This document shows, piece by piece, positions 14,849-60,647 of a stretch of DNA of 64,000 nucleotides. Location: positions 1 through 64,000 of the forward strand of contig JALJEE010000349.1 in assembly GCA_023231475.1 (NCBI GenBank), written 5' to 3'. Position numbers and translations under genes: made by a program. The stretch comes from Seison nebaliae. Its lineage: Eukaryota. Numbering within the stretch: the stretch's first letter is position 1; every line of letters begins with the position of its first letter. The notes under the pieces are model-generated. The model did not search any database and had not been told where the DNA came from. It saw only the letters and a list, made by a program, of their open reading frames with translations.

Positions 14849-15934
14849 ATGACATCGGAAGAAAAGCAACAACGAAAAGATGAATTGGAGAAGAATTTGA
14901 CGCAGTTGAATTTCGTTAATTTTAATTTTGTCATTATTCTCTTTCATTTCAGTCATTTGAATAGGTCGAATTACACCTGAAGAAATGTCCAGACGATGTC
15001 GAATATATAGGGATGAAAAATGATTTGGAAGTTTGAAAAGTCCATTTCTTCTATCAATTATTCAGATATTCATTCCTGTACATTGATATTTTTTAGGAAT
15101 TAATCGAACTATTGAAAGAAACGATTAGTGATGATGAGGATGATGAAGGAAGTGGAATAAAAACGGAGGAAATTGGTGATAAAGAAGATGGGAAGAGTTT
15201 TAAAAATATTTAAATTTCAATTGAAATTATCTTTAAAATTTAGATGAAGTAACAGAGAATGATTTGTATAAACAAGTGAAAGATCCTGAAAAGATTTGGA
15301 AAGTTGACGAACGATGTCTCGCTGTCTACACAGATAAGAAGTGAACATTCCTTTTTGAAATTTTAATTTATTTCTTTTTCAGATATTATCCAGCAACTGT
15401 AGTTTCTATTAGTAACACGGGAGAAGCGAAAGTCATTTATGACGGTTTCACTAAACCGGTACCAGCTGATGTTTGTCAATTTTTATCTGTGTTCAATTTT
15501 ACAATAATTTTCAGATTAATCTCCTTCGTCCCTACAGCGATTTGTGGACAATGAATGCAAATAAAGATCCACTTTTGGGAACGTTGTTATCGAATGATGC
15601 ACAAAAATCGAATAAACAAAAGAAGAGATATAATCAAGAGAAAAAGAAGAAGAAAATGAAAAAATTATTGGAACAAAAAAAAGAAGTGGAAGAAGAACAT
15701 GCAGCAATTGCTGCCAATTGGAATTCATTCAAAACTAAAGTTCGATTTTTAATTTTTCTTTTTCAATTGTCATAATATCGTCAGTTAACTGATAAGACGA
15801 CATACTTTCCAAAATTTGTCGATAATAGAATCACGAAAGAAGTTCCATCTCAATCTTTGAGGAATGCACAAAAAAGGAAGAATAACAATTACGCGTTGAC
15901 AAGTGCGGCATTTGATAAAAAGAAAAAAACTTAA
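14849..15934 (+). CDS. SMNDC1: Survival motor neuron-related splicing factor 30 (Tudor domain), 7 exons
   Basis: Spliced product MTSEEKQQRKDELEKNLTQLNF/VELHLKKCPDDVEYIGMKNDLE/ELIELLKE...WKVDERCLAVYTDKK/YYPATVVSISNTGEAKVIYDGF...KKEVEEEHAAIAANWNSF. This matches the SPF30 layout: N-terminal helical region, Tudor domain, then a Lys-rich stretch with a W..F motif. Confidence 0.8.
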
Positions 15935-16093
15935 AATTTCTTTCAATTCCAACAAAAAAAAATTTAATTCTCCATCAATTTTTATTACAATACTTTTTTT
16001 GTGTTTTGAAAAATATGTTCGGACTCTGGAAAAATTGGAGAATCTGAAAAAATTGTTTTCATATAAAAATGATTATAATGTGAAAAATGTTTG

Positions 16094-19000
16094 TTATTTT
16101 AAACCGGATTGGATCTTATTAATTAGTGATTGATTCATTTCGATGTTGTTGAGAGTCTTTCTTTCGAAATGACTAATTTTATCAATATATGAAATGGATT
16201 TATTAAATTGATTTCCATTCTTTGATTTGAATTCAATTGTGGGAATTGTTGTCGAAATATTGAGATTGAGATTAGTAAACTTCCATGGATTTGAATGGGA
16301 GTAAGTGGCTTTGTTGTCCAGTAACGGAAATTTTCCATTTTTCCATTTCAATTTTGATTTTTGAACTGATTTTTCCACCTTCGGTTGTTTATAACCAGTG
16401 GAATAATTTCTTTTCGTCTTTGGTGGTAATTGATCAAATGATTTATTTAAGGTGATTAACTTATCGTTAGGTAACAATCGATAATTCTTCCATTGTCTGA
16501 TGCTTGTTCGCGTTGTAGGATGTTCATTCTTTTTCTCAATTTCTAATTTTTTCGATGAGAAACTTTGTGACATTGTCCTATCAGGGTAAGTTTTGTGATT
16601 TCGTTGAAGTTCTTCAAACATTTCCAATGGAACACTTTGTGCCCTTTCGTTATTCAATTCAGTCCATTTCTGAAAAAAAGAATATTAGTCAAATAGAAAA
16701 TGATTAAAACTCGATCATCGATAGCGGAATGTGGATAAATGAGAATATTGTCTTTGTAGTTATCGTTGTTTAGTGTTTCTAGTAGTTTTGTTAGTTTCCT
16801 TTTATTTGTCTCTTTGTCGTCTCCTTTCTTTAAGTTGTTATTGTTCAAAATAAGAAAAGGTTGTTGATGGTCCGTGAGTAATAAGTCTTCGTAGTTCGCT
16901 TGTTCACATCTTGATTTGTTCAACTTTTTTTCTACAATTCTCTTATTGGATTCTTGCATAATTATAAGTTTATTATCGAAATTTTCTTTCGATTCCAAAT
17001 CCATTTGCTTTTGGAGGCGATCTCTCTCCTCGTAATGTTCCGTAACTAATCGATTTTTCGGCATTATTCCGCTCGCCGTATCATGTTGAGGAGAAGGTTT
17101 GAGAGAAACATTCGGTTCATCCTGTAGACGAATATTAGTCGAAGCATGTTGAAAACATTCGTCCAAGTTATTCGATTTCAATAAAAGTTGATCTGAAAGT
17201 AATGCTTGTTCAATGTCCAATAAAGAAGAGAATCGTCTACTAAATGATTCGTCATTAAAAATCTTTTTCAGTTCTATATATTTAACACTTCCATTACCTG
17301 CCCAACTTAATCGTCGATGATTCTTCATATTCTCCATTCGAACGACCATTGTTGATTTATCTTTCATCGTTTTTCTTTCTTCGTCATGGGTCATTCCTAA
17401 CGGCGAATTCTTATTTCTACTAATAATATTATTCTCGTCAATGCGATTTGTTTTCATTTTTTTCCCTGATTTATTCAATCGTTCATTATTCCTCGCCCTC
17501 TTATTCGGTTCTTGAGTAATTAGAGAAATTTTATTGTTATATTTCTCATCTAATTCGTCAATTACGTTCGATGTCAAATTGTCTTTATTGTTGACATTGA
17601 ACGAAAAGAGAACTATGGATGTTCGCAAACCAACGAGTAATTCATCACAATGAGCTCCCGTTAAATTCAACGACAGAATACTCTCGGAGGTCGAAGTACC
17701 TCTCCACATTCGTAAACAATTTCCACTTAAAACGTCCCATAATCGAATTTTACCGTCGTCACATCCTGTAACTAATCGGAGATGTTTGAAAGCTAAAGAT
17801 AAAACTTTAGTTGGATGTTTGAAAGAATTTAAAGTATCAGTAAACGAAGATTTCAACTCATTCGTCCACACTTTCGCAAAACCATCAACTCCTCCAGTAG
17901 CGATATGATAATTATCGATTTTGATACAAGTCAATTGACTACGATGGGCATCGATCACTTTATTTATTTCACCTTTAGCTAAATTCCAAATTCTCAATAC
18001 TCCATTCATGTCTCCGGTGTAACAGAATTCCTTTCTCAGTAAACATTTCGTTACGGGAAATTTGTGGAAGAATGATAAGATTGATGTTCGACTTGAATCG
18101 TTCCTTCTCCAAATTCTACAAGTCTTATCATAGGAGGCGGAAGCCAAACAATTTCCATAGAGATCGATATCTACCACTTGACTCGTATGTCCTTGATAGA
18201 CGAGGAGACATTTCCCATTGAATAAACTCCAACATCTAATGGAACAATCATAACTTCCCGTATAAACCACATTGTCTATTTCGGAAATGTGGATACATCG
18301 AACACTTCCACTATGTCCAATTAATTTGTGCATCCTCTTAAACGCCATCTTATTTGATACTCGATGAAAAATTACACATTCTCTTGATTTTGGATCATTT
18401 AATTGACCAATTGCCGTTACGATATATTTCGGTTCATCATTTTCTATTATATGAACTGAACTGAATGTTTTGGATAATTTTGTTGGATTAATATTCTTAT
18501 CGTCACCGATTATCGAATGTATTGAGGTCACATTATAGGAGTCAGCGACAATATTACGTTCTTCGACAATTACTCGACGATATATCGGATGTCTTTCAAC
18601 GATAGATGGCGTGAAATCTTTATCTAAAATATCTTCACTCATTTTTTCCGTTTCTACTTCAACCGATCCTTCATTCGAACGATAATCTGGTATTGGAATT
18701 CGAATAAAAGCCCGATAATCGGGATCACATCCAGTGACAGCTAATTTCTAAAAATTTTCTCAAAATTCAAAGAAAAGCAAATACTTCTAAAAAACCATCA
18801 TATTTTTCGTATTTGCATTAAATTTCGATTTGATCCGTTGTTCTTTCTTCACTTCTTGCACTAAATTCTTCCAATTTGATGATACTTTCTCAGCTTGTTG
18901 TAATGAATTGCGATCGAGTAATGAAATTATCCTTTTACTTACATTTATTGGAAGTTCACTAAACAGTGGGGAATTGTAAAAAATGAAGTTCAATTTTAAG

Positions 19001-19944
19001 AAACCTCATCGGATCTTTTCGGTGCTTATCGATGATTTGATTATTCTGCAAATTAACGAGCGATGTTGGTTGAATTAAATTTCCAAAATCGTCATTTAAT
19101 TTCGATTTATCGTGATGAATATCTTCGTTCTCTTTACGTTTTTCACCATTCATCCATATATGATGACTAAATGGTTCATCTACAGACGATAGAAGAATTA
19201 ATCGAATGTTCAAATTTCCGTAGAACTATTAGTAACAGTCACAGGATTTATTAATATATATGGAATGTTAATGGGATGAAACAGAAATTAATGTTTTGTT
19301 TCAAATATTTTTTCATTTTTCTAACACAAAACAGTGTCAGTAAAAGATGTTTTTATAATAAAAATCATTAACAATGATTTTTTACTTTAATCAACATAGA
19401 ACTTAAGAATAAATCCAAGAGAATAATGGATAAAATGGTAACTTAAATTTTTTCTTAATCTTTTCTTCTCATTCTCTTTGATTGTCGTTTCTACTGTCGT
19501 TGTGGGTCGAAGTTTAGTTTTTTTCCGTTTAATCTCCTTCCGAAAATTCAATTTGCAATTCACTCGCATATAATTGGAAAGTTGGTCCAATATTAGTAAA
19601 TCGTTCGTCGCGAATATCAAGGTCTTCAAAAGTAAATGGTAAGTATTCTCCAAGAATTCCGTATCAAAATTTTTTCTCATTCTATCAAAAGTAAATCGAT
19701 TAATTTCTTTTTGACTCATTGTTGTTCTAGCGCGATTGTTTTTCTGATAAACCATTTCTTTCGTACCAACCAGATTTCGAAGTAACTTGTAGATATAAGT
19801 CAAGAAGTTTGAGGAATCAGTTTGATATTTCCCAATCTCGTTAATTAAATGAATCATAAAACGATATTGATCGACATTGGAAGCTTGTCGAAAGAGAACA
19901 TCATGGAAATTTTGACATTTTCTTTCGTCAATCTTCAGTGACAT
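16094..19944 (-). CDS. FBXW10: F-box/WD40-repeat protein, FBXW10/CDRT1-like
   Basis: F-box KDPMS/ELPINVSKRIISLLDRNSLQQAEKVSSNW, followed by GCDPDYRAFIRIPIP and VEERNIVADSYNV (recalled as FBXW10-like motifs) and WD40 repeats (GHSGSVRC..TGSYDCSIRCW; GHTSQV..SASYDKTCRIW). Three GTT-AG introns were placed; the junction between 19387 and 19213 is unresolved. Confidence 0.75.
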
Positions 19945-19998
19945 TTCTCTCTCACAATTTCAGTCAATTGATGACTCTTATTAGGAGTAAAAGTTGAA

Positions 19999-21039: not shown

Positions 21040-24000
21040 TTAGAAAGCATTAGTTACACGAATATCTTCTAATTTTTTCGACATCTAAAAATGAAGTTCG
21101 AATAATTTAAAATAAAGAAAAAAGAAAATTGAACTTCGTTTGTTGTGCGATCTAAATCATCAGCGACATTCTTCTTCCGAAGAAGGTCGAGAGTATTATA
21201 CTTTTCACATAAGTCGCCGTCGATACAATTCCTGATTGGAAGAAATGCTGATCGATGAGTTAAATGATCACGACCAGTCAAGAAACGATATTCTTGTCTC
21301 ATATGCATTTCCAGATGTTGGAAGAATGCATAATCCTAATAAATAAAGAATGATAATTATTAATGAAAAAAATTAAAATTATTAACTGGTTTACATTTAA
21401 ACGGAATAAATACACCAATCGATCCACTTATAGTTCCATATAAAAGAACTTCGTTATTTCCTGGAACTAAACTGACACGTTGTAATGATGTCACTGTTTC
21501 CGCTAAACGGAATTGACATAAAGTGTATAACTAAACCAAATTAAAATTGAAAGATTTTCAATAGAAGAAAGAACTTTATTATTTGCACCGTTCAATAGAC
21601 CACGATCCCATAAGCCTTTCGTTCCAGACGGATCTAATCCAACTCGCTCATCCAAATCATCATGATCATCACCAGAATTAGTGACGTGCGGTTTCAACCA
21701 ATCGTCAACTGTATCGACTCCTTCCAATCTAAGAACGGCAAATGTTCCAAATTTATCAGCAACCGCAACTGTATTGTAATCAAGAATGCACATTGCAGTG
21801 ATATATCTGTGAAAAAAGTGAAAGTTGAATGGTTTCTTTAATAAAAATGCTTCTATGTCAAACCTTGGTAAAGTATCATCGGCTAAATTGAGAAAATGAT
21901 TATCTTTATAGAGTAGTAGATGAACACTCTCACGAATGTCACCTACAAAAACGCGATTGCCAATCGCTTGAATGTCAACAATTTGATGAGGCAACAACTG
22001 AAGTTGGTTGAATGAATTTCAAAAAGAAAAATTAATTAAGATCGTCGAAAAGAAAACTGAACTTTATTCTCACATTTTTTCAATAATCTTCTTCGACCCA
22101 AATCATATAATCGTAAATTCTTTCCTACACTGATTAACACTTTGCCTTGGAATGCACAAATGGCACCAGGAACATCTTCTATCGGTGTCTTGTGAACGAA
22201 ATCTAACATTTGTGATTTGGATTGATCGGAAGAGGAGGATATGCGAAATGTGTAGATATATCCACCTTTATTCTCTTTCGGATTCAACACATAATCTTTA
22301 CTAACACCAACTAACAAATATCGTTGATTTGGTTGGAAGTCAACGAGACAAATGGAATGAGTCGCTTCATTTGGTTCGACTTCGATCAATTCCTGAGTAG
22401 ATGGGACATTGGGCGTTGAGACATTACAATTAATTAAACGAATCAATGAAGCCCATGACCCTTTTGATGATTTCGGTGCTCCAAAAACATCTTCTGAAAA
22501 TTTATTAGACTTGTCGATTAACGCTTCTGCCGTCGATTCGACAAATTGTTGTTGTTGTTTCAATTCACTTAATTTCTCCTCAGATAATTCATCTTCAGTT
22601 CCATTCGTCGTATTCTCTTTTAAGAACATTTCTTTGTTTTGTTTAGCTGCCTCTTCTAACTCTTTTCCTAACTGTTCTTTCCGTTCCTTCTTCCCACTGA
22701 TGGTAAGTGCGAGATAATCTCGTTCGATGATATATGCATGACGGTTTGCCGGATTCACAATAAATCGACGAGGAGTATGATTTAATTTCATTTGAGTCTC
22801 ATGGAATTTTACATTCAATTTCTCTAATCCTAAAATTCTTAGTGTTGCTCCACTAATCGCCACTAAACCGTCAGCACATTGTTGAGATGAAAATCCTGCA
22901 CCATATTCTAATAGATCATTATATGATAACGGTGTAATTTCAAAATGATCGTGAGACATATATCCCAACCATGATCTTGAAGACAATGCTAATAAAGCAT
23001 CACAATTGTTAATAGAAGTTCGAATTAATTTGAGCGGACGATTGCCTAAATATCTGGTTCGAGAATTGATCAATGCTCCCGATAAATCATCGACAGCCGT
23101 TCGAATTAATAATCCATTATTTAGTCCAATACATAAATATAAAATGGATGAACCTAGCATAGTTGAGGATGAAGTTGTTGTGAGATTGTGATTGAATTGA
23201 GTTGAATGTGTTCGAATGAAAACTATCGATTCAGGAATTCCATCAACTGATTGTGTCGCTAATGGTTGGAGACAATCGTCGACATCTAATGAAATTATTT
23301 TGATTGCATGATCTGAGAGACCGATAGCTAACCATCTAGCTTGTCTTTCACCTTGCTCTATTTTCGGCAATGACATACACGTCACATCAGATGATACAAT
23401 ATATTGTTCGTTATACTCTTTTAATTGCCCTTGAATATCCATTTCGAAATATATCAATTCCCCACCTGATAATGCGATAACTATTTGTCGTTCGTTGATG
23501 GCACAATGAGTTATAGTTCGTCTTCCAGGAGTCCATTCATTAACACGTTCATCTGATCGAATATGACGAATACCTTTCGGATAAACTTGAACAAGTGCAT
23601 CATCTGCCATTTGATAACAATTGATTGTCGATGTTGTTCCAATGAATCCTGAATCGACAATCTCTTCTACCGTCTCTCCAATCGACAGAACGAGTGTAGC
23701 ATTATCGAAACTGATGATGATTGATGAATCATATTTTTCTTCATTCTTCTTCTTCAACGTCCAAACAGCTGTCGGTTTATATGGCAACTCACTGACGGCC
23801 AATTCACTAATCTCCAGTCCATGACGCAAAATTCTCAATGTCGATTTAGCTGATCGGCCACATAACATGTATAATTGTAAATGATCTTCATGTGCTAAAT
23901 CGGCCCCGTACATTTGAATGATGGGAGAGAATGAAGTTAATTCATCGATCAAATTCATATTGCGAAGAGAACGAGGTTGGAAATAATCCATTTGTTCATT

Positions 24001-25221
24001 GTCTGAATTTAAGGAAGAGAATTGAATCTCATCTTCATGATCTCCCAATGAAGTTATTCGATAGAGATGATGATTGCCAAATTCGGCAGCACAGAACAAT
24101 AATCCTGATCGGAGAATATTTAGACTTGTCGCCACAGGAATTGTATCGAAATATTTTATGACCATTTCACTCACACTCAAATCGTCTTTCGTTGTCAAAG
24201 TGACTTTGAACAAATCGCCCTGATCAGTTTGAAGGAAGAAGAAGAAGAATAATCGAATTTTATGCATGGCACTTGTTGTTATGATGATTTTCCTGTTATG
24301 ATCGTCGATACTATTTCGACGATGAGGAATTTGCATTTTGATATCAGGTTGATCTCCAAAATTTTTATAAGTGATATAATTCTCCGAACATATAATTAGA
24401 CCTGATGGTCCAGTATCGCCTCCGGGGACAGATATTAAATAATTTGCTGGTTCATCTAATGGTTCGGAATATTTACGGACGACATGATTCAATCCTAAAT
24501 CTAATTCATAGAAGGTCAATTGTTGTTTCACTTCGTTTAACTGTTTCTCACTATAGTCCAAATGTCCCATTTGTCCTTCTCCACTCAATAAATTCTCTTC
24601 GATCTTCTTACGATCTTCCTCGTTCGAAATCGATGTCATATCACTCTCCTCATAATTCAATTCGAGACAAGCGAAAATTGGATTCTCATAACCGACGTCC
24701 ACTCCAATCATATGGAAAATGATTGTATTCGATTTATGTGCTTCTAAAGGTGAGGAAATCGTTAAATTTGCTTCATTATCTCGATTCATAATATATACAA
24801 ATTTCTGCTTTTCAATACTTCCCACCATAATCGCTCTACCTTTTGGATCGACCGCCAAATATTGCCCGGGAATTGCTCGACGTACTCCACTTTTCCCAAA
24901 AGTTTCCATTTGTCTAATATCCCAAATATTCTTCTCAATCGAAAACTCCAAAATGGAAACACGACCTGAATCACTTCCCACTACTAAATAGTCTTTATTT
25001 GATCCAGTCAATCGGAAAGTTGCGAGAGATCGAATTACTGAGAATGTATCGACATTATGTATCGTTACTAGTTTATTATTTTCCGTATCATATTTAATCA
25101 ATTCAATAAATCTTCCTCTTGCCAATACAATCTCTTGCTGGCGACTAATGCCGGTAAAGCTACCATGAACAGATTGTGTGATCGTCGTCGCATTCTGCAA
25201 TGTCAAATGGTACAACTTCAT
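21040..25221 (-). CDS. SF3B3: Splicing factor 3B subunit 3 (SAP130/Rse1), 6 exons
   Basis: MKLYHLTLQ..., ETFGKSGVRRAIPGQYLAVDPKGRA, FYELDLGLNHVVRK, LRHGLE; C-terminal exons FFQHLEMHMR..GRDHL and MSKKLEDIR. Five introns, all GTT-AG. Confidence 0.97.
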
Positions 25222-25396
25222 CAGAAGAAAAAAATTCTAATCTTTCAAGAAATTTTCTTACATTCACTCAAAGCTAAACTTTTCTTTTAGTAAAGATTTT
25301 TTTATTTCAAAAGTTATTCTAATTCTTCAAATTTCAATAATCATTTTTATTTAATTTTTATTTATTTAAATCATTTTTTATTTATTTCATTTCCTT

Positions 25397-27937
25397 TTAA
25401 TAGAAATGTCTCGTTCTTGATCTCGGATCCTTATAAGTTTTCAACCAACTATTTGCTCCTTCCATCGTACCTTGTGATATTTGATGAAGTTTTAAAAGAA
25501 AAAATATAAATTAACTGTCGTCAATCTTACCAGTTTCATGACTTCTTTCCATAAATTTCTCAAATTCGTTAGTATTCTTACGCTTATCTACGTAGGTGAA
25601 ACAGTATAGTTCATGTGGATTAAATGAAAGAATAACCTCGAGAATAATCTATATCTAATAACCGCGAAAATGAGTTAGATATATTCTAAACAAAATCACA
25701 GAGTCTAACTGTATCGAGCTAGAAACCGCAAGTAGCATTTGAAATTAATTTACAGTTTAATAAAACAAACTAACGCACATCTTTTGTATCCCAATTCGAC
25801 TTAATTTCAATTAACACTACAGTTTAAAAAAGTATTCTAAAAATAAAATTTAATATAATTTACCTTTCTTATTTGGATCACCTGGACCAAGGTGACTGAA
25901 AGCTGCAAATTTATGTTATTCTAAGTTTCTTTTAACAAAATCAAACGATCTTCCGTTGTTTCTTTGCTCGTCTTAACTTCTTCCGATGTAGTTGGTTTTG
26001 GAGACGTTCTTACTTTAACCGGTTTGCGCATCGGTGAAGTTGGTGGGATTATCGGTATTAGTGATGGTGTTTTAATAGTACTTTTTGGCAGATTAGGTAT
26101 ACTTTGAGCCGGTGTTGGTCCACCTAATAATGACATTCTCAAATAACTAATTTGTAGAATAATTAATAAACGTTTTCCTGCTTTGGCAGCCGCCACAGAA
26201 CCACCAATTATAGCGGCACTTGATGCTGCCGCTATAACTCCAGTTTTCAACGATGCTCGTCCCCCTTTTGTTGATTTTAAATATGATGCTTTATGTAGTT
26301 TTCCTTCACCACGTTTCATTCCCATTATATAAGCATCATCCAAATTGTCGTCTTCAGCACCTGTATAGAAATTGAGGAAATCTGCGTCATGTACATCAGG
26401 TAATAAAGTATTCTGAACTATATCCTTTCTCACTTTCCTCCTTTCGAAACAGAGAACTGCATTCGATAATTCTTGGGCTAAACTCTTCTGTATTAAATAG
26501 TCATCGAATGATAAATATGTTTCATCCACATCCTCCCTCAAATTCTCTACCATATAATACGAAGCTTCTTTATAATATGAGTATTTCAATTTTCTATTCA
26601 CTTTAACATTAATATGAGTAAATTGTTTCTCTAAAGTTGATTTGATGAGTTGTCCTAAGGAATATTTTGTTGCTGGATAAATTTTACTCTTAGTGCTTCC
26701 AATGATTCTATTCTCCCAAGTTTGACGTTGTAATGAAAATGCTAAGAACGTTAAAAGATTACTTCTCGGAAATGAGAAAGTAGATTGCTGCATTTCAGCG
26801 TGTGCCTTTGTTCGTCCGACGAAATGTCTTATCTTAAGATTAAGTGCTCGAAATTGCACGTTAAGTATCGGGTCTACTGCACTCGTAAATTTAGAGTATC
26901 TATGTTTAATTGCATGAGTGTTAATAGTGGCGTTCATTTCAAAATCTATTGAATACAAATCTCCATCTACTGACTTGTGAGAACGAAAGTTAACCTGTGA
27001 ATCTTGTATCTTCTAATAAGAAACGAGGAGTAGTGGCCATATGCTTTTCAACAATATCACTGTGGAAATCAGCATGTGGTATGAACCTTGATGAATCTCC
27101 AATATTGTTACAATATTCTCGCTAAATAATCAAAATATCATTTACATGATTGTACATCTTTTTTAACCTGTATACTTTGCGGTCTAACATTAGCACGAAA
27201 CTTTGCTGACATACGTGACCAAGTAGGACAATCGCATAATGATCTAAATCCTATTTTCTTTGTTAAAAAAGAAATTCTTTACAATAATGAAATAATTCAA
27301 ATGGAAAAAAAATTAATAATAAACTCTTTGGCGGGTGGTAACCGAAAAAAGGTAGGACATATTCTCTCAAATAAAAACGAATACTCCTTTGGACTGTTTG
27401 ACAAAATGAGACTTTTAATTATATTGAGAAGAAATAAACTTTCCTTCATCAGGTGGAAGAATATGTTGATGAATTAACTGTTTTCTAAAAACTAGAGGAG
27501 AAGAATCCTGGAAATCAGGAGAGGCTAATATATCTGCAGTATTTACTCCCAAAAATTGCATTGGATATTTTTTGACGATATTTCGTTTATTGTTGACCAA
27601 TAATTCTTTTGAATTTGCTAATGCCGTTTTAATATAAATTCCAAGTTCAGAAATAATTTTATTCTGGTTTGGCGGTTTTGGAATACCTAAAATATTTATG
27701 TTTCTTTTCAAAGAAAAAACTTAAGAAAAAACTTTTCCAAGCAGATGATGTATGAGATACATCGTCGAACCTTTCGCTTTTTTAAAAGAGAATTAATTTA
27801 TGAAAATTCCAAATGATTGATAACTGATTTCTATACAAATGATCAATATAAGATACTAATTCATCGATATACTCGTGAAAGTTTAGTCCATAAGTACCAT
27901 AGTGAAGAAGAATTAATGAAAAAATTAAAAATTTCAT
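25397..27937 (-). CDS. Orphan multi-exon secreted protein with a Pro/Thr-rich region
   Basis: Signal peptide MKFLIFSLILLHYGTYG from ATG 27937. Six GTT-AG introns link in frame through ORFs 27415-27711 and 25921-26958. The 3' exons (25397-25900) are tentative and could belong to a separate gene. Confidence 0.55.
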
Positions 27938-28410
27938 TTTTCCAATATTCATTTAATAAAGAAATGATTTTAATTCGATTTTACAATATATTGTTAAGCG
28001 AATTATGTTTATACACTTCAATGTGTTTTAATAGGGAGGTTGTCTATCATAAATAGTAATCAAAAATTAAAAAATTATATTTTGGAAAAATAAAAATGAT
28101 GAAAATATTTTTTTTCTAATTTATTTGATAATTTAGCAATGCATGATTCTCAATCAAGTGATTGATCAAGAAGCTTCATAAAATTATGATTCTTTAACGC
28201 TGTTCGGAAGTTCATTTGTAAAACTTCAATTGAACTTCACAATATTTAAAAAAATCAATTTATCGAAATCTTTGTCAAAGAGAATTTACGTGAAGAGATA
28301 TTTTGAATGAGACTTATGTATCTCTAGTTTACAACAATGAAAAAGAAAGCAAAATGATCATCATTATGCTAGGTTTTTACCTTTAGCATACTCCTAATAG
28401 TAAGAAGGTT

Positions 28411-28458
28411 GAAGTAATAGATGTAATAGAATGATGTAATAGAACGATGTAATAGAAA
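28411..28458. repeat. Short minisatellite, core GATGTAATAGAA, about 4 copies
   Basis: gaagtaatag atgtaataga atgatgtaat agaacgatgt aatagaaaat. Confidence 0.6.
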
Positions 28459-30436: not shown

Positions 30437-33400
30437 ATGGCTGCAAATAAATTTCTTGAGGTCAAGCCAATATTATTGTTAATATTTTATCTCATTCTTT
30501 CACATCAATCATCCCAAATATATTTAGATGGAGTTTCTCTAAACCTCAAGACATTCAATCTGTAGAAATTGATGATCATTTAATTTTCAGTTGCAAATAC
30601 AATATCCAATTTCTGAATGGAAATGATGGTAGGATTACTAAGAAAATTAAGAATGCTCCAGATGGCATCTTTAACTTGACAATGTCGAACGACGGAAAAT
30701 ATATCAGTTGGAACGATGCAGCATTCCCTACCAACCTTTATCTCCAGGGCACTAATGGTAAGAGTGTAATCAAGATACACGAAGTCGCTTTATTTGGATT
30801 ATCATCCATATCGATATGTCCTGGAGAAAAGGTCGTTTGTTGTGCTACAAAACCACCAGAAACTGTCATTCGAATATTGTTCATTTTTGAGTATTTTGTC
30901 TAATAACTCAATTATTCTTCAGCAATTACAGTTCGAATGATAAAATTTTCGAATTCGATTTGGGAGAGGAAAATTTAATATTCTGTTCATGCAATCCCTT
31001 CAATTGGAAAAGTGTTCTTGTGGTAACGTCTACCGAAATATATATGTTGAATATCCAAATATCTGAAGAAGGAAATAGTCCGACTAAAATGTTACTGGGT
31101 ATTAAAACAAAATTTCATTAAACTCATTAAACTTAATTTTATTTAGCGATTTCATAATGCCGAATTCGTCGAAGGAGAAATTTGAGAAATATGATTACTG
31201 CAATAAAAATAAAATGAGTAATGATGATAATCGAAACGTACCGATGGCAGTTGCGGGTTAATTGATTAATACTTAAATTAAAAATATAAGAGAATTTTAA
31301 AGGAATGATTGAAGATACGGAAAAAGTTGAACGAAATTTGGGACTGAAAAGATATGTAGTTCCCAAATTTGTTAATTATCTCGATATGAATCGAGCGTTG
31401 GTCATTTGTGAAGATAACGAGATACTTTTGGTTAGAATTTAGTTCATATAAAGTCTTCCATTGGGGAATTGTGTAGTTAAATTTACTGAATCATAAAGTG
31501 AAAGTTTTACATGATCCGACATCGACACCATTCTGCTCCCAAATAGATTTATCAATCATATATTTCCTTCCAACATTGGATTCAAAAATTTATTTAATCT
31601 ATGAAAACGGAGATGTACAACTGGTAATGATTAAGAAGAATGTAATTGAAATTGGTAATTTCAAGAGAATGAAAGTTAATGCTGAAAAATTGGCGATTGG
31701 TGCAACGAAATTATACATTTTATCTAAAGTTCTTCTCCTTCCTTCTTCTCAATTTCATCCTTTTTGAAGAAAAACGAATTGTCTTATATTAGTAAAAATG
31801 GTCAAGGAAGTGAAATAAGTGAAATTCAAAAATTTTACGATACACCTATTATATTTCTCTCATCTTTAAACGAAGAAACTGAACAATATTTCCTGACTGT
31901 TAGACGAAATGGATTGGTAGAAATCGCCAACAATATTGACGGTATTGTTATAAGCGATTTTCTGTTACCAAATAACAATGTTCAATCTGTTTTATAATTC
32001 TGAGAAAAATTTATTATTCTCTTTTTAGATCACAACCGCTCAGTTAGGCCATCGAACTAATGTTTTAGTTTGTGGAACATTCAGTGGAGAGTTATTTCTG
32101 TACAGTATCGCCTCTAAGAAGCCATCAGTATTCTTGAGTCATTTCCATTTATGTGATGCTTCCATTATAAGATTGACGTTTATCTTCATAAAATATTTTG
32201 ATAAAAAGAAATATTTCTTTTTTCAGATATGCACCTTTAGCACAAATCTTAATAGCATTAACTACTGATCGATTATTTATTCTGAGAGTGTGCGATCCTC
32301 CCGAAAACCATACTACAGGTACGTCATGTCATTTCAAAATCGTTGGTCATATAAGTTAAATTATTTAAGCAAATTTTATAAATGATTTAACTTGAACTTT
32401 GAAAGAAACGATCGGATTTCCTTTGGATATCGATTGTGTTGTCCGATTTCTAAAAAATTCGCTGACGAAAACTTATGAAGAATCATCAGTCAGATTAATC
32501 ATTGGTTAGATATTATTCAAAAATACGATTATTTTTTAACGATTTTCTTTTCAGGATATAATATCCAAGAGAGATTTAACAGCGATGTTGATACTGATAA
32601 ATATATTGAAGAATCTTTTGGGCCGTTAAAGAAAGATTTGAAACAAAGCATGATCAATGTTGTTCAGATTTCCGAATTTAACACTGCTTATTTATTTAGT
32701 TATTTTTTTTTCACACCCAAACTAATATATCTCGAACAGCACATATGACTGAGAGTGGAGAGAGTCCAATTTACCAATCGCTGGACATGACACTACTAAC
32801 CAAAGCTCATGGTTATCTAGCTGTATCGACTAATTACAGTTTCATACCTAAATGTGCAACTAAAATTCGATTCATCGATCCAAACACGATCGTCGCATTG
32901 GGAATTAATGCACTTTACCGAATTAAATTGCCCGAGGAATTAAATTTAGCAAAAGTTTAAACTGAAATTCATTTTTTTAGACATATTGAAAACGAATCAA
33001 TAGAAATTGAAACCGGTAAAAAAGAAGAATAAACCTAAAGAAAGAAATATAGAAGATGATAGGCATAGTCTCTCCTCCCAATCTGTCTCATCGAAACATA
33101 GTTATGTTAAGCCAGTGACAGCTGAACAGCCGCCTAGTACAGTAGAGACGTTACTTAAAACCGAAGACTCACCTGATACAGATCTAATAGAGCTGAATGA
33201 TGACGATGAAACCGGTTTAGATGTATTTGATGAGACCGAGATTCTAGCTGAACAAATTAAAAGAGATCGGAGAAGAAGAAAAAAAGCGACAGCTGTAACC
33301 GGCAGGAAACCGTCACGTCGTGCGTTAGATGACACAGTTAGAAAATTTAGGGTTACAGAAAATAAGAGTGTAATATAATTGTTTTTAGCATACTCAGAGT

Positions 33401-38465: not shown

Positions 38466-38743
38466 ATGAAATTTCTCGCATTAATCTTCACAACTTTATT
38501 CCTATTATCAACAAGCGCAACTGCGTTTAAATTGCCATTCGGTAATTTAGGCCAATGTAATTGGGTAACTTGTTTCGTTGATCCTTGTACCGTAAGCCAT
38601 TGTTCAATTCCTGGTGCTTTATGTCAGTTAGTAAAAATTTTTTAGGCGTTGACGATATTTTTATTTTAATCTTATTCAGTTCAAACTATTGTAATGGTTG
38701 TCATGCTGAATGGTATATTGGAGGGCATATAGTTCATTGCTAA
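38466..38743 (+). CDS. Secreted 74-aa Cys-rich peptide, copy 2 (2 exons)
   Basis: MKFLALIFTTLFLLSTSATA-FKLPFGNLGQCNWVTCFVDPCTVSHCSIPGALCH/SNYCNGCHAEWYIGGHIVHC*; intron 38627-38679 lies at the same position and phase as in copy 1; 8 conserved Cys. Confidence 0.88.
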
Positions 38744-43287: not shown

Positions 43288-43959
<672 letters not shown>

Positions 43960-44898: not shown

Positions 44899-44902
44899 AT
44901 TT

Positions 44903-45830
44903 TCATTTTTTATGCTTTTTCTTTTTTCGTGCAATGATGAAAGGTACGAAGAAAAGAACGATAGAACATAATAAAATGATAAGAATACTTCCCAAAAATA
45001 ATAATCGTGGTTCCAATTTAACTTCGAAGAGAGGATTATCTACAAAAAGAAAAAATTTTAATCGTTAGAAAATATTAATATAGAACTTTCTTCTTCATCT
45101 TCATTGACATTGTCAGAAATTTTTACTTGTAAAAGATTCGGTTCGAAGTAGATATTCATCTGAAAATGATTGTGATATGTAAATTTTCCATAAAAATTTA
45201 TAAGAACAAATTTCTTTTGAGAGAACTAACTCGTTTTATATCGATGGAAATAGAGTTATTGCAGGACGTTCGAAGTATAGGCAAATCCAACTTCCAACTT
45301 GCATAAATATTTCTTCCTTCATTTTTCGTTGTTAGTTGAATCTGTGAAATATTAAACGAATATTGTAATGTATATTATTTTGTGGAAGAATTGAGAGACT
45401 TGAAGAAAAAAGTCCTCTGAGGATGAAGTGAGTAATGTGCAGAGTTGACCCAATCGAAATAAAACATAATCCTGATCAATTAAGAGGTCGCCTAAAACAT
45501 TAGTAGATTCGTAGAAACAATAAATCTTTACATCATCAACACAATATTTCTGCATTTGTATAGAGAACATCCGAATACGATTAATCCCGATCGGTTTAGC
45601 ATATTTGGTGAGATTATAAGCCATGGATTGACTATAAGTTGAAAACAAATGGGCAAATTTGATATGATTTTCAAGTTGAATGAACATTAGAACTTGCTTT
45701 TGATAAAGAATCGAATGATGTCATCCTCATAAGCGAAATGTTCCACCGATTTCTTTTTTTTAAAGCGAGATTCAATTCCATTAGTAGAAGAATGAAGAAG
45801 AAGAAAAAAGAAAATTGAAGAAAAATCCAT
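44903..45830 (-). CDS. Orphan type I membrane protein (signal peptide, C-terminal TM helix, basic tail), about 5 exons
   Basis: Signal-like MDFSSIFFFLLLHSSTNG. Exons join through ORF 45352-45687 to IQLTTKNEGR.., MNIYFEPNLL.. and ..PRLLFLGSILIILLCSIVLFFVPFIIARKKKKHKK*. Confidence 0.6.
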
Positions 45831-46091: not shown

Positions 46092-47194
46092 TCAACTAAA
46101 TCCAACATCATTCGCATTCAAAACGAGACGGAAAGCCTTTCTCATCAATTGTTGTTTCTTATAATAAATTTTAAAGAATCCTAAAAATATTATGAAGAAA
46201 GTTGGAAGAAGAATAAAAGATGGACCTTTTATTGTAACGAAAGTGATGCCTCCAAGTAATGTTCGTTGGATGTTAGAACAAACACGTTCAAAAAATAGTT
46301 TTCCACAAGCAGTGGCAGCTGTTGGTAAAAGAAGTCCACCCATCACATTTCGAATAACTTTCAGTAATGCAGGTTGTTGTTCTCTATCTAGTTTCAATTC
46401 TTCGTCCAATTGTTCGAGGAAGAAGTGTTGCAATTCACATAATTCTCGTTCTTGTGTCGGATTACTCGATCGAGTAGTTGTCTTAGCTAAAGAAGGACGG
46501 AAACTGCCGAAGATATATTTACATAGATCCATGTTCGCCATGTAACTTCGCCATACGCGGAAAATGGCAGTTTCCCATTTAATCATTCGAGATGCGACTA
46601 GTAAAACAGGAATTGCAGGTAATCCCATCAGAAGAAAAATTGGATCGGCATTTTGTATTAATTCTAATCCTTCGGAATGACCGAGCACTTGCATGATAGT
46701 TACAGCACCGAAAGTAACAGCAGTCCAATAAACTGATCCGATCAATAACGCACCGGCTAATGGTGGACAGACTTTTTGGACGAAAAGGTCGAATAAATCC
46801 AAAATCTTCCCTGGAAATGATAAGGGAGCGGAATAGATTTGATAAGCTGTACGACATTGTGGACATGTCACATTCACATTAGAAATGCCGTTCTGTTTCT
46901 GATTAATCCATCGTTGGAGACAACGTTGATGGACCCATCTCATCGAACCACGACAAAGACATGGTTGCACCCACACTGTACAATCAGCTAATGAAGTCAA
47001 TTGACATTCATTGTTCGTGAATGGACCATTTGGATTTATCGATACTTGAGCGATCGATGTCGTTGGTGAGACATGGAAGGTTGACCAATCCTCCTCTTGG
47101 TAACAAATCCAACAAAAATATTTTCTCGAAAAATAAAATTCATTTTATTGGTAAATTGATAAAAAGAAAACTTATTCTCTGTAGTATCGGACAT
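46092..47194 (-). CDS. MARCHF5: Mitochondrial E3 ubiquitin ligase MARCHF5 (RING-CH), 3 exons
   Basis: CWICYQEE...WVQPCLCRGSMRWVHQRCLQRWI..CPQC, YWTAVTFGAVTIMQVLG, LLGGITFVTIKG/FFKIYYKKQQ. Introns follow MSDTTENK and lie at 46181-46225. Confidence 0.95.
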
Positions 47195-50880: not shown

Positions 50881-52305
50881 ATGACCAAAATCAAAATGTC
50901 TCCAACAATGTCACCGAAAGAAGAGATGCCATGTTTCGGTTCATTCATCCATTCTTCTCTTATCTCATTCGCTTCTTTCATTTTGTTGAAATATCATCCA
51001 AACAGGTCCAAATGAACATTATAGCGATTTGCCATTCGATGTGAAATTGGGTTTGAACGAATTATGCCCGATTTGTGGAGACAAGGTGAGCGGATTTCAT
51101 TATGGTCTACTCACTTGTGAGAGCTGCAAAGGTTAATTTCTCTCCTTGAGAGATGATGTGTTTATGAAAATATATATTTGTCGAATGATATTCAAGGATT
51201 CTTCAAGAGGACCGTGCAGAACAAGAAAGTCTACCAATGTGTTGACAAGCAGTCATGTCCAATCGATAAGACTCAGAGAAAACGATGTGCTTATTGCCGT
51301 TTTCAGAAATGTTTACAAGTTGGAATGCGTCTTGAAGGTTATTTCAATTATTCACCTTGTCTCTTACACAACCACAACCATTTCTACAAATGATATGAGT
51401 GACCTTTTATATATATTTATTAATGGACAATTGAACGATTCATCCAATATTAATTCTCTGTTTTGTTGTAGCTGTGAGAGAGAATCGGGTAAGAGGTGGA
51501 CGAAATAAATTCGGTCCGATGTACCGAAGAAGTCGAGCACTTAAACAACAAGTGTTAAGGCAACAATATCTGTCAATGGTCAGGCAGTCAGGTTTGAAGA
51601 ATTGTTTTAAAATTATTTCAATTATTAATTAGGTGCTCCGAATGCTGAAGAATTGCTAAAATGTGATGTGAAATTGGATGGACAGAATAATTCATCGACC
51701 ACCAATTCAACATCGTATGATGCCACATGTCATAATGGAGGTCGAAGTAATTCACAATTGTGTAAAGATGAATTATATTCTCCTACAAGTTTATAGTTTT
51801 TTTTTCCATTTTATAAATATAAATTATTCTCATTTTTCAAAAAGGATATTCTTCTAATACAATTTCATCATCATCCGTCCAATCAACACTTTCCGTTCCA
51901 TTTCCTTTGCAACAACAACAACAGCAACATCCTTCTTCTCAAACTCATTTACATGTTCAACAGCAACAACATCAACAGCAACAACATCGACCACCTATGA
52001 TCCATAATCCGACTCAAGCATATACTCATTTGTCTACTCTATCATCGTCAACAGCTATAGCGGCTGGCGTTGTGGCGACATCATTAGTAAATAACAGTAA
52101 TACAAATGGATCATCCTCATCATCCGTATCATCAACGAATGGTAATTTCAATATAAATAATCTGAAGATGGAATGTGATGTTCCTGGATATTATTATGGA
52201 GTGAAATCTGATAACACAAATAATTATTATTTGTTGAATGGACAACAGGATCGATGTCTATTATCGTCCAATCATTCACCTTCCAACAACAACAACAACA
52301 ACAAC

Positions 52306-52339
<34 letters not shown>

Positions 52340-53548
52340 GTACAGTGACTAATGATAATCGAACACCGAATAATTCTTATCAATATTGTTGTAATAATAA
52401 TAATAATAATAATAATATGAATGAACTTGATTTCAAGACGACGAATAATACGGTGAAGACATCGTCATCGACGACAGTTCTGACGAATGATATTTTGGAG
52501 AATAGAGGACCCAATAGAATAATAGATTATCATCAAGAATTCTCATTAAATAATAAAGGACAAGATACTTTGAAGAAAGTGATGGAATCGAAAGAAAATT
52601 ATGGAAAGACACTCATCGATATGGATGACGTGGAGAATAGAAGTTTAGATAGGAAGAACATTCTCTCATCTACACCCACTTCACATCGATATTCATTCGA
52701 TATACCTAAAAATAATATTTCCTCCAATTCTCCTAATTATCCGAACAATAATTTCGAACAATCGAATGCAGCACATCGTAAACGTAGTTCAACAATAATG
52801 CATCCTTCTGATCTTCATCGAATGACTGCATCTTCATCTTCATCCTCCTCCAATTTCATTTCACATAATAGCAACAACAATTCTGATATCCATTTAACTA
52901 ATTCGATATACGGCGACGTTCAACAACAACAACAACAACAACAGCAATCGAGACAAATGGCATCGCAAGGTCCACACCGAACAGCATCGTTTAATATACA
53001 ACCTAATAATAATTCAAATAATAATTCGGAGAATATTCAAGAATCTTTCTCTCAGATGAGACACGCAAGTTTATCCATCTCATCACCAATGATGAAAGCC
53101 ACACACCACTCTCACTCTCACTCTCAACAACAACAACAACAACAACCATACAGTTTAGGCAATTCGTCTGCATCTTCATCTCCCTTACCTTCATATCCGA
53201 AATCTGCAGGTAAATTAGAAAGTGATGAATTATATTCAGTTCAAACATTCAATACGAATCATCCCAACAACAACAATAATAATAATAACAATAGTGCTAA
53301 TAATAATGGGAGGACACATAATAATACGTTATTAGGAAATAATGAATCGAAAACTTCACTCGATACAATAAACAATAGTAACAACAGTCATATCTTTATA
53401 TCAACATCGAAAGATGAAAGAACTTTGAATAATATACATTATGATTCGTCCAACACCCAACAACAACAACAACAACATATTCAACATCAATTGAATAATT
53501 CCCAACAGTCACATATCATTCATCATCAACAACAACAACAACAACAGC

Positions 53549-53589
<41 letters not shown>

Positions 53590-55787
53590 GTTCCATCTCA
53601 ACAACATCAATCGACATCACAACAATCTGATCAATCAAATACGAATAAACTTCCAATGAAACATAGTAGTACAACAAATCTTATTGAGTCTACCTCACAT
53701 CAATATCGTTCTCCAGAACTGAATAATGGATCACATGATTCTATTATCAAACGTCGCATGACATTACAAGGACCGTCAAATTTCCATTTGAATCGTCTCC
53801 ATCACCACAACTCGGTGAATGGAACTAGTGGAAATATTCAGTCTGGGAATAATTCGCAAGTAAATCAAAATTCTGGAGAATATTCTAACGATGAAATGAA
53901 TGTCAATTCTCCAATGATCTTTTCCAACGATCCCCAACCATCATCGTCATCTCGTTATTATAATTCGGAGCAGAGTAGCAAACCGAATAATTATGAAAAT
54001 TCACATTTGCATCGTAGTTTCTCTATGTCTCTAGTTTTCCCTCCTCGAAATCAATCGTCAGTTGACGATTGTCTCATAACTCAACCGTCCACTAATTCGA
54101 ACGGAATGAAAATTGATGATTGTTGTTTTGCTGATTATACGACTGCCTCTGTCACTACACCTAAATCAGATAATTTTCATAATGATTTTCGTTCACCATT
54201 CATTACGAACGAGTTCTCTCCAAAATTGTTAAGACCGAAATTGATGAATATCAATCTCGCATATCTCTCCGAACTATTGGCATATTTATTGCAAACGGAA
54301 GATCAATATAAATGTACGGAAATTAATGAATTGAAAGAGTTGTATAAGATTCATTGTATTCTTCCATTACTATCCACCATTGACGATATGGATATTAAAC
54401 GTTCGAGATATGATGAAAATCATTCAATGATCGAGAACGAAGAATCTATCGTTATTGGTTTCTTTAGTCTCGTCAATAAACTCTTATTCATTGTCGTTGA
54501 TTGGGCAAGACAAACGGCCTACTTCAAAGATTTACCAGTTACTTCACTTTATTTTCTTTTCACTTCAATTCAATTCATTTCATCTTTTTTCATATTAGAT
54601 CGAAGATCAGATTCGATTATTAAAGAATTGTTGGGTAGATTTGTTGTTGATTGAGAGTATGTGGAAACAATATGGAACATATTATAACGATTATGTTAAT
54701 TTGAATAATATTTCAACATTTGTTGCAGTTTGAAATTTTCATTGGAAATTTTTGAAAAATTTTATTTATTCTTTTCAGTTAAACGATCAGGAAATTCGAA
54801 TATCGGACATGCAACAATATTGTATGTCTCAATCGATTTTCAATAAGATTCTCGATTCGATTAGGAAATTATCATCACTCAAATGGAATTATATCGATTA
54901 TATTTCGTTAAAATATCTTATTTTATTTAGTTCAGGTTCAATTTATTCATTTATCGAAATTTTCGATATATTTCAATCATATTTCAGATGCAAATGATTT
55001 GGAGAATATCGGAAGTGTGGAACAATTGCGTGAAAGAATCAGTTGTAGTTTAGCTGAATGTATTTCCAATTATCAGTATGGAGATCAGATGAATGGTGGT
55101 CAATTAAATGAAATGAATCGGAAACGGAATGCTAATTCCATGTCAGTCTCTTCGACCGTCGATGATAAGATAGGAAATCTGCATATGCAATTATTAGAGC
55201 TGAAAGATATTGGGAATCAAATCAAAAACATTTTCATTCATTTGTGGCGAGATAAATATTATAGTTCTCGTTTACGTGATGAAATTGATGGAAGTTTACT
55301 TGCCGAACTATTATCCGGATTAGATGTCACTTCCCAACGACAACAACAACAACAACAAGATAATCTATCATCAATATCACAGGAAATGAAATCAGATTAT
55401 TCATTGAATGATCATCACTCAACGAATATCATCACAACGAGAACAACGCCATCATCAGCTTCATCATCATCAACACCAGCAAATCAGATGATACACAACG
55501 GTACAACAGATCTCTCGTCTGATACGAATAAGAGTAATCATTTAGAAAGAAATGATGTTTCCGGTGAACTCTCAATGTCATTGGCGTCACCTGCATCCTC
55601 ATCCATCATGGTACAACTAAATTGTTCATCAATCGACAACATCAATAAAGATGGAATAGATAATAATTTTGAAAATGAATTATTGATAAATGATTCGAAT
55701 AATGACGTATTCCTCTCCGACTCCTTAACTACGACCACTACAGGAACCACTTGTGTTGTAACAGACAGTGGAGGACGGTTCGATTAG
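50881..55787 (+). CDS. NR5A: NR5A / FTZ-F1 family nuclear receptor, 9 coding exons
   Basis: [50 protein letters not shown]1 box [62 protein letters not shown]-2-like SLLAELL. Eight GTT-AG introns. The start codon is uncertain. Confidence 0.93.
52285..52338 (+). repeat. (AAC)n(AAT)n microsatellite encoding poly-Asn (18)
   Basis: Read directly, within the NR5A hinge. Confidence 0.95.
53527..53589 (+). repeat. (CAA)n microsatellite encoding poly-Gln (21)
   Basis: Read directly, with one CAG interruption, within the NR5A hinge. Confidence 0.95.
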
Positions 55788-58311: not shown

Positions 58312-58982
58312 AATGAAAACAATGGGTGAATACCACTCCGTGCCATATAAAAAATAAACTTAAAACTTTCTAACTAACCAGAGAGTTTCTCACAATTGTC
58401 AGTACAATTGTTTAAAAAAAAGCTGTCTCTTTTTACCAATTAAAGTATGCTTTAAATAAAAGATTTAACGAAATGTTTATGGAAGTAAAAATTTTGATTG
58501 AATGAGGAGAAGGTATGAAACAAAAAAAGTATTTAAGGTCTTTTTTTCTAATTTCCGATGAAAGGAAGACCAATCTCACGCCCAATCAAAACTTCCATAC
58601 ATTCAATTTTTATATTGAACCAAGTATCAAGTTTCACTGGAAATTATGTTGAAATGGGAACCTCGTAGAACAAACACTGTGCTGACTGATTGCATGATGA
58701 TAATTTATAAAAGTCTTTTCTATTTTCCTCGAGTTGCGTGATAATGTAAATTAAAATTGCTAGTTTTTAGTTGGAATATATTGTGGAAGATTTTTATTAA
58801 TCGCAATTAACAGAATCACTTCATTCATTTCCTGTTTTTTGAAAAATAAAAAGAAATCACGCTTATCTCGAATAGAATTCTTATTAATTCTCAAAACAAT
58901 TAAAATTCTGTTCTATTAGTCGGATAGTTATTTCACGGTGGATTCCACGTTTGATTATATTTCTAATTATTACGACATAGAA

Positions 58983-60647
58983 ATGTTGAGAAAAAATGAC
59001 AATGTTGAAGAAGATGATGGTGAAAATGATGATTACAATCAACCAGTTTATGGTCTATGTTACGAGATCACAGAATTGCAGGAATTGAAGAAACAATTGA
59101 TTTGTTTGAATGTTGGAGGTGTACGGTTTAAAGTTATGCAGTGTACATTGCAACGATTACCAGATACTATATTGGGTAATATCAATGTACCGGGTCAAGA
59201 GTGGGTGAAAGAAGAGTTTTATGATAATATCAATAAAGAGTATTTCTTTGATCGGAATCCTGTAATTTTTGGTTATATACTTAACTTCTTTCGAACTGGA
59301 GAATTACATATCCCACAAGACAAATGTGGTGCCAGCATTAGAAAGGAATTCGATTTCTGGGGAATTAATGATGGTGACATCTCAGCTTGCTGTTGGTTAT
59401 CATATTCTCAAGTGAAGAAGAATCGTATACTTCTTGAAGATTTGGAGAATGAACTCAAAGCCAAATTATCCCATATGAATAAAGCACTACCGTGTGATTT
59501 GAGCAAAATTATGGAATCGGATACAATGGATAATGCGAACGTACAAATGTTATGGAAGAAATGTTATGAAGAACAACAAAAAAGGAATGTAATGGCATCA
59601 CAAAAATTGTCTTGTTATAAGAAATTTCAAAGATTCCGACAGGAAACTTATGAGATAATGAACGACCATCAAAAATCTTTGGTCTCCATGGTTACCACAT
59701 TTTTGAATTTTATTTAACTCAATTTAATTGTTAATTGCCCACAGATTTATGCGGTTTTCCTCATGATTGTTACTTTAACATCGATTGTGGTTTATGTATT
59801 TGAAACGCACAAAATAACTATGACCGGTTACTTGAAGAATGAGACAACTTCAGAATTAACGATCTTTGAAGATCCACTACAAGATTTAATTGGTTGTCTT
59901 AATAATAGTCAATGTGAAATAAGGAGAAATCGAAAATTATTCGAATTTGATTTTTGGATACAAATCTTCTTTTCTTTCGACATTTTCGTTCGACTTTGCG
60001 TCTGTCCATCAATCAAAGTTTTTTTCAGGAATTTTTTCAATTGGAATGATCTATTATCAATTGTTCCATTTTATGTTAATATCGGAGTGATTATTTTAAA
60101 TGGACATACTAATTTGGCGGACATCATCACCCAAACTACTATCCTCTCACATTCGAAAACATCCCTAACCGGTATCCTAAGAATCCTTCAAGTGACACGA
60201 ATTCTGAAGTTGATGAAACATTTTTCAGGAACGAAAGTTCTTTTCTATACCTTCAAGTCCAGTGTCAGTGAAATACTATTAATAATCGTTTTCATCGCTT
60301 TACTGACTTTGTTATTTGGAGCAACGATGTTTTTCACCGAATCGACCCATCAGTATAAAAATATCGGTGATGCATTCTGGTGGGCGGTTGTCACAGCGAC
60401 CACTGTTGGATTTGGAGATTTTGTTCCCACGACTGTTATCGGATATATAATTGGAGGTATTTGTGCAATTAGCGGAATGTTGGTCGTTGCGTTCACGGTA
60501 CCGGTTGGCGTAAGTAACTTTACATTGTTCTATGGACATGCTCAATCTCGATTGCAGCATGGAAAGCGAATGAAGAAGCAGAAAGATCGAATGAAAAAAC
60601 TTGTTCAATTAAATACAATGAACAGACTCGCTTATTCGAAACATTGA
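58983..60647 (+). CDS. Voltage-gated K+ channel, Shaw/Kv3-like, copy 1 (GFG filter), 2 exons
   Basis: T1 domain EYFFDRNP..LNFFRTGELH..FWGI..ACCW; intron 59691-59744; S4 LRILQVTRILKLMKH; pore FWWAVVTATTVGFGD. The start codon is uncertain. Confidence 0.92.

Follow-up and report, generated by a model that had tools for sequence, protein, structure and literature searches.

In a 64-kb stretch of Seison nebaliae DNA (contig JALJEE010000349.1; hereafter, the window), we found that almost all introns begin with GTT, that is, with a pyrimidine at the third intron position (+3). Seison, an epizoic animal in the Rotifera-Acanthocephala clade, has a compact genome of about 46 Mb (PMC8351084), and a purine (R) at +3 is so standard that spliced aligners take GTR as their default (PMC12766944). 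The dominance of GTT donors, at about 90%, is confirmed for this window, from which all Seison counts given here are drawn, and the switch likely reaches across the genome. RNA supports it as a lineage-specific change of the 5' splice-site code, and the animal concerned is intron-rich.

RNA evidence came from Additional file 2 of PMC8351084, where Trinity transcripts are placed with GMAP on the assembly of the species. The coordinates of its contig k141_1992 are those of the window; 79 rows are listed for this contig, and all RNA counts below refer to these rows. Defining an RNA junction as a distinct transcript gap of at least 30 nucleotides (nt), we obtained 36 junctions, 35 on the minus strand and one on the plus strand; CFAP43, NR5A and a Tudor-domain gene are covered by models only. 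Each of the 36 junctions had exactly one GT-AG placement, and their donors were GTT in 32 cases, GTA in two and GTC in two (binomial P = 1e-6 for GTT against 0.5). The Trinity transcripts were built from STAR-mapped reads, which makes a bias towards GT-AG ends possible. There is no known reason for STAR mapping to favour T at +3.

Together with 43 modelled introns, the RNA junctions form a total set of 79, comprising 72 GTT, three GTA, two GTG and two GTC donors. For the models, GT-AG and GC-AG alternatives were enumerated and scored with profiles of non-Seison homologs; a second route used a gene finder that demands GT and is blind to the later donor bases (donor-agnostic), and a third spliced the NCBI proteins P0001 (SF3B3) and P0121 (CFAP43) onto the window. 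Sixteen models coincide exactly with RNA (all 15 on the minus strand and one on the plus strand), and no minus-strand model is contradicted. The remaining 20 RNA junctions were new relative to the models and, since 16 of them are GTT, selection does not explain the GTT figure. By hand count, the donor-agnostic gene finder placed GTT at 48 of its 53 introns. These numbers agree with the initial annotation of this DNA, which had placed GTT at about 60 of some 70 introns, most of them 41-60 nt long; in our set the median length is 49 nt and 65 of the 79 introns fall within those bounds.

The counts claimed for single genes (Table 1) were likewise recovered. In SF3B3, all five introns were GTT with the same five hexamers (GTTCAG, GTTTGA, GTTCTT, GTTAAT and GTTCAA); the GTT solution scored best for each of them by at least 14.4 bits against a profile of 60 non-Seison homologs, and splicing of P0001, the best match of an SF3B3 exon (100%, the next matches reaching about 52%), gave the same result. 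The four hexokinase introns were GTT by homolog profile and RNA. Here profile scoring put introns 1 and 3 ahead of GC-donor rivals by 0.9 and 0.1 bits, and both are settled as GTT because RNA junctions match them. All eight NR5A introns were GTT in the models, two DNA-binding-domain junctions fitting solved NR5A chains and the donor of intron 7 being one of three GTT options. CFAP43, for which about 21 of 22 had been proposed, came out at 22 of 23 in the models. Its best exon match is P0121 (SNEBB_006729, 99%), which, when spliced onto the window, gave GTT at 23 of 25 introns, the exceptions being a 148-nt GTAAGT intron and a 308-nt GTATGA gap. The latter (37280-37587) joins CFAP43 to the small gene that follows; as the CFAP43 frame continues to its own stop at 37311, we left this gap out of the counts.

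T at +3 also exceeds what the T content of the introns provides. Their interior is 47% T, 32% A, 13% C and 8% G; GTT makes up 72 of 79 used donors versus 55 of the 105 GTs inside the same introns, and 41% of intergenic GTs. Among 56 curated introns (53 scorable), 17 have a single frame-compatible GT, and all 17 are GTT; of the unused frame-compatible donors in the curated set, only 20 of 61 are. In the interval 38-72 nt before 35 RNA acceptors, GTT accounts for 31 of 35 used donors versus 15 of 35 unused GTs, and a random pick among the GTs at intron distance would yield 25.4 (P = 0.003). Length-based intron definition, one of the causes suggested initially, is therefore insufficient when taken alone.

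At the level of single positions, +3 is T in 72, A in three, G in two and C in two of the 79 introns. A is shunned (24.9 expected) and C depleted (10.5 expected), and a GTRAGT-type purine occurs in only five donors. Around this position a weaker signal persists. At +4 we counted 38 A (24.9 expected, P = 2e-3), 23 T (37.4 expected), 17 C and one G, and at +5 20 G (6.2 expected, P = 2e-6), 32 A and 17 T. Positions +6 to +8 are at background, with G at +6 in three introns versus 6.2 expected. The statement that the donors lack a +4/+5 consensus is thus overstated, as +4A and +5G are weak but both exceed background. On the exon side, A occupies -2 in 45 of 79 introns and A or G occupies -1 in 61 (39 and 22, respectively); against a phase-matched coding background for 56 introns, -2A was seen 31 times versus 20.5 expected. 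We found no association between -1G and +5G (P = 0.19). The surviving signal (-2A, purine at -1, +4A, +5G) is a faint version of the ancestral code, in its usual register and with one letter swapped.

To compare this donor with those of relatives, we scanned metagenome contigs with a bdelloid hexokinase and obtained 45 loci, of which nine genomic ones, with a GC content of 27-36%, were called bdelloid-like solely on similarity, their best matches being proteins of Rotaria and Didymodactylos. Homolog-guided placement, which contains no model of +3, gave GTA at 29 of 29 of their introns, covering only about 7-8 distinct positions. With the donor-agnostic gene finder, seven bdelloid-like loci including flanking genes yielded 30 GTA and five GTT among 37 introns. 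Homolog-guided placement at eight other eukaryote loci yielded 18 GTA, seven GTG, three GTT and three GTC (n = 31). The bdelloid-like introns are mostly 45-63 nt long and similar to those of Seison in length and AT content. Because introns of this size and composition are GTA, neither property explains the GTT of Seison. They have a strong -2A (27 of 29) with weak -1G (12) and +5G (10), as do those of the window, where +5G occurs in 20 of 79 introns (Fisher P = 0.35 for +5G). As +5G and -1G are weak in both sets, we consider them shared rotifer traits and not a novelty of Seison; it is the +3 letter that separates the two. Bdelloid-like donors (locus L013 and others) have a near-fixed A at both -2 and +3, and such a reduced donor may have eased the later switch.

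Three of the four hexokinase introns of Seison (1, 2 and 4) share position and phase with bdelloid-like GTA introns. In a cross-comparison of 77 introns, we obtained 21 cross-hits, and the 15 listed were 12-20 nt long. Since positions and phases are shared while the introns are dissimilar in sequence, ancestral introns were converted from GTA to GTT in place.

How the switch is read is less certain. We give an even chance to a scheme in which an in-place change of +3 from A to U is read by an adenine now facing it, predicted at position 6 of the U1 small nuclear RNA (snRNA). The U1 5' end and the donor consensus are as in PMC9311317, the assignment of U1 position 6 as the standard-register partner of +3 being our own indexing; at a later step +3 faces G44 of U6, with which A or G pair weakly (PMC11732430). 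A partner changed rather than lost is suggested by the fact that +3 is about as invariant as in bdelloids but carries a new letter. An adenine fits because +3C is depleted, although C would pair most strongly with an unchanged G44 (PMC11732430), and because the three bases other than U are rare to much the same degree. The recognition hexamer of U1 would have changed from ACUUAC to ACUAAC, a sequence that would pair with GUUAGU without any shift of register. Definition of the intron probably begins with its narrow size range (41-60 nt) and T-rich interior; loop 1 of U5 would keep the A-rich end of the exon in place, and the cut would be set by the G-U-U core. With the changed U1, predicted duplex energy moves from -2.1 to -2.9 kcal/mol for Seison donors and from -5.5 to -3.4 kcal/mol for bdelloid donors, a shift that follows from the +3 counts and adds no independent evidence. 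As predicted U1 pairing is weak either way, length definition and the U5 contact probably carry much of the load. The more general form of the proposal, with a new adenine opposite +3 in U1 (or U6) and thousands of ancestral introns converted from GTA to GTT genome-wide and with no prior loss of introns, seems to us just as evenly balanced.

Several observations weigh against this scheme. An Rfam scan of the window gave no match at the gathering score, and among seven matches at E up to 5 there was no spliceosomal snRNA. Standard U1 is reported to be kept in yeasts, Giardia, Trichomonas, Thecamonas and Micromonas, all with changed donors (10.1101/2022.06.08.495308), and in the tunicate Fritillaria, where donors have also changed (PMC13326754). 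Even with the altered U1, Seison pairing (-2.9) would stay below that of bdelloids (-5.5). About one in ten introns is spliced despite lacking +3U, and a perfect GTAAGT heads one modelled intron. Finally, a single 64-kb window is compared with a bdelloid control of nine loci and about 7-8 positions, with flanking genes mainly from one locus, bdelloid-like rotifers being the only relatives covered.

The most serious competitor, which we hold possible though clearly doubtful, keeps the snRNA pairing regions standard and has a protein or a base modification impose +3U (U1-C, LUC7, PRP8, SNU23, DIM1 or snRNA modification). It would fit the report that most changed-donor lineages retain a standard U1 (10.1101/2022.06.08.495308), and that Fritillaria changed N6-methyladenosine (m6A) patterns and U2AF instead (PMC13326754), as well as the weakness of U1 pairing under either U1 sequence. 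However, the precedents touch +4 or the terminal dinucleotides, and we found none for +3 in the literature searched. Loss of the METTL16 or SNRNP27K type acts on +4 towards U, or shifts +3G to +3A (PMC11732430); as +4U is below background here (23 of 79 versus 37.4 expected), these two factors, both suggested in the initial annotation, are disfavoured; neither is named in the supplements of PMC8351084 that were searched. The rewiring of donor recognition proposed there is supported as a change, by RNA, by the failure of composition and length and by in-place conversion, and fewer of the causes it lists now need to be considered.

That U6 reads +3 we consider improbable. Either an unchanged G44 would form a wobble pair with +3U after U1 had lost importance, or G44 would have become A. 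The position of +3 opposite G44 speaks for it, as does Entamoeba, whose GUUUGU pairs better with U6 (10.1101/2022.06.08.495308). Yet to an unchanged G44, +3C should be no less acceptable than +3U, and it occurs in two of 79 introns; the other positions read by U6 (+4U, +5G, +6U) are weak, and the ACAGA box is described as kept in both Entamoeba (10.1101/2022.06.08.495308) and Fritillaria (PMC13326754).

A third explanation, in which no reader changed and +3 became free in length-defined introns under T-rich drift or mutation bias, is largely refuted, and we give it very little weight. It draws on the uniform intron length, the 47% T, the GTT form of half of all intronic GTs and a model-free scan 5' of acceptor-like words, where the signal was weak (50% GTT versus 39-41% farther off). 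It does not account for a T share of 91% at +3 versus at most about 56% at +4, +6, +7 and +8, nor for the avoidance of A; moreover, non-GTT decoys at intron distance are passed over, and bdelloid-like introns of the same kind are GTA. At rare human donors, which also begin with GTT, a standard U1 does pair with its register shifted or bulged (GUUAAGU type; PMC9311317). Such pairing would need G at +6, where we saw no increase, and would displace the downstream signal by one base; instead, GTTAAG is absent from the 79 donors and G is enriched at +5, so that this highly improbable explanation is refuted in the window. Least probable of all is a recent insertion wave of one element starting with GTT: transposon-derived introns are known from other lineages, but the cross-hits listed are short and three of four hexokinase positions and phases are shared with bdelloid GTA introns.

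The sole precedent for +3U that we found in the literature searched is Entamoeba, an intron-poor lineage with GUUUGU(U) donors (88-90% GUUUGU, 97-98% GUUUGN; Roy and Bowser, 10.1101/2022.06.08.495308). Its U1 reads ACAAAC, matching the donor, and its U6 ACAGA is normal (10.1101/2022.06.08.495308); by analogy, U1 position 6 would be the simplest candidate reader in Seison. In both, +3U prevails at GT-AG introns that the major spliceosome removes. Unlike Entamoeba, Seison shows a faint +4A rather than +4U, +5G in a quarter of introns and no rigid hexamer (GTTTG in 6 and GTTNGT in 8 of 79), and it is an animal whose window is intron-rich, with 23 introns in the 1877 codons of CFAP43 and 13 within 2.7 kb in an unnamed transcript. 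It shares with the standard animal GTRAGT its GT-AG ends and residual -2A, +4A and +5G at the same positions, and departs from it at +3 and at -1, where A outnumbers G. Fritillaria (PMC13326754) and, with their GA-AG introns, Oikopleura and Eurytemora (PMC7072748) are likewise cases of small, fast-evolving animals with large-scale departures at the donor; there the terminal dinucleotides changed, whereas Seison keeps GT-AG and swaps the third base.

In the literature searched, with subscription-journal splice-site surveys largely outside it, we found no description of a GTT-type donor code in Seison or any other animal; in the main text of the genome paper (PMC8351084) the stem 'splic' occurs once and 'intron' twice. 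Transformed donors have been linked with lineages that first lost most of their introns (10.1101/2022.06.08.495308). In Seison, the swap is found in an intron-rich animal, at ancestral positions and with near relatives still using GTA, which makes it a testable case of a splicing reader co-evolving with thousands of targets. If the scheme is true, richness in introns does not prevent the snRNA-donor code from being rewritten. In practice, GTR-biased tools can misplace junctions in S. nebaliae.

Other parts of the introns are closer to the U2 type, in that GT-AG ends are removed from RNA and the 3' end is T-rich (at -5 and -4) and mostly YAG (TAG 42, CAG 25, AAG 11 and GAG 1 of 79). The fixed U12-type donor GTATCCTT is absent from the donor hexamers and octamers listed. 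No branch motif stands out in the introns of the window; YTRAY occurs in 23 of 52 introns versus 22.1 in shuffles. On their sense strand, 58 introns contain TCAAY 26 times, at 9.9 per kb versus 4.6 per kb in both intergenic and antisense sequence. The motif lies loosely 11-26 nt 5' of the acceptor, stands out only weakly from Markov nulls (9, 13 and 66 of 300) and could be a non-standard branch-site preference.

Table 1. Genes and introns of the window with their donors.
Feature	Position	Strand	Introns and donors	Evidence
Two introns, outside the span of the initial annotation	4235..4465	-	4282-4235 and 4465-4413; both GTT	RNA
Tudor-domain gene (presumably SMNDC1/SPF30-like)	14849..15934	+	6: 14915, 15031, 15197, 15341 (GTG), 15471, 15740; other five GTT	Donor-agnostic gene finder
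F-box/WD40 gene (Pfam)	16094..19944	-	19442-19180 (263 nt), 19004-18959, 18795-18748, 16710-16670; all GTT	RNA
SF3B3	21040..25221	-	22062-21998, 21863-21807, 21574-21531, 21386-21336, 21134-21085; all GTT	RNA
Unnamed transcript	25300..28045	-	13: 12 GTT, 1 GTA (25863)	RNA
CFAP43	30437..37311	+	23: 22 GTT, 1 GTAAGT (33518-33665, 148 nt)	P0121 model, gene finder
Small cysteine-rich gene, intron	37721..37774	+	GTT	P0121 model and sequence
Paralog of small cysteine-rich gene, intron at same place	38627..38679	+	GTT	Sequence
Introns of a gene taken to be MRPS18B-like	39243..39670	+	39243 (GTG); 39390, 39503, 39614 (GTT)	Frame enumeration; 39503-39546 also RNA
Hexokinase	40161..41866	-	41713-41664, 40842-40802, 40662-40612, 40284-40236; all GTT	RNA and homolog profile
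Unnamed gene	44763..45821	-	5: 45693, 45230, 45086 (GTT); 45531 (GTA); 45399 (GTC)	RNA
RING-variant gene (Pfam RINGv; presumably MARCH5-like)	46092..47194	-	47171-47125 (GTT), 46225-46181 (GTC)	RNA
NR5A nuclear receptor	50881..55787	+	8, all GTT: 50939, 51132, 51338, 51592, 51789, 54538, 54695, 54936	Models
Voltage-gated potassium channel, intron	59691..59744	+	GTT; GTC at 59682 also in frame (ambiguous)	Picked by hand

Among the introns outside the GTT class, the modelled CFAP43 intron at 33518-33665 has the sole perfect GTAAGT donor in the set, with an unused TTTTCAG 43 nt downstream inside the intron, and may be a sign that the old signal is still read. We dropped a size rule by which long introns keep GTAAGT, as the 263-nt RNA intron of the F-box/WD40 gene and a 134-nt NR5A intron are both GTT. 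By hand count, an isoform retaining the intron was seen for two of four non-GTT RNA introns versus three of 32 GTT ones. In the unnamed gene on the minus strand, the neighbouring GTC and GTA introns (45342-45531) are those retained in other isoforms.

Turning to the genes themselves, the Tudor-domain assignment reflects a weak match (E = 0.006). In NR5A, a 2.7-kb exon (51823-54537) rich in runs of Asn, Gln and Ser separates the DNA-binding domain from a divergent C-terminal part, for which the pieces scanned gave no Pfam ligand-binding match. The two cysteine-rich genes (37550-37850 and 38465-38735) are tandem paralogs, both short, whose products have a hydrophobic N-terminus ahead of the cysteine-rich body. 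Two tandem potassium-channel genes each contain a match (60405-60518 and 62862-62975), scoring below the gathering cutoff, to the Rfam potassium-channel RNA editing signal (E = 0.007 and 9e-5, respectively), which may reflect only conserved coding sequence. Upstream of CFAP43, a high-copy repeat region (29080-29900) contains short tandem units, and mean contig depth rises about 18- to 38-fold there. Lastly, low-depth contigs from a lineage about 10-20% divergent (30400-37300 and 14500-34400) cover exons and tend to end at modelled splice sites. Three records end exactly at +3 of the GTT donor at 31091 and one record does so at 36961, and contigs also start at modelled acceptors; these ends, at two donor sites only and left out of all counts, are suggestive.

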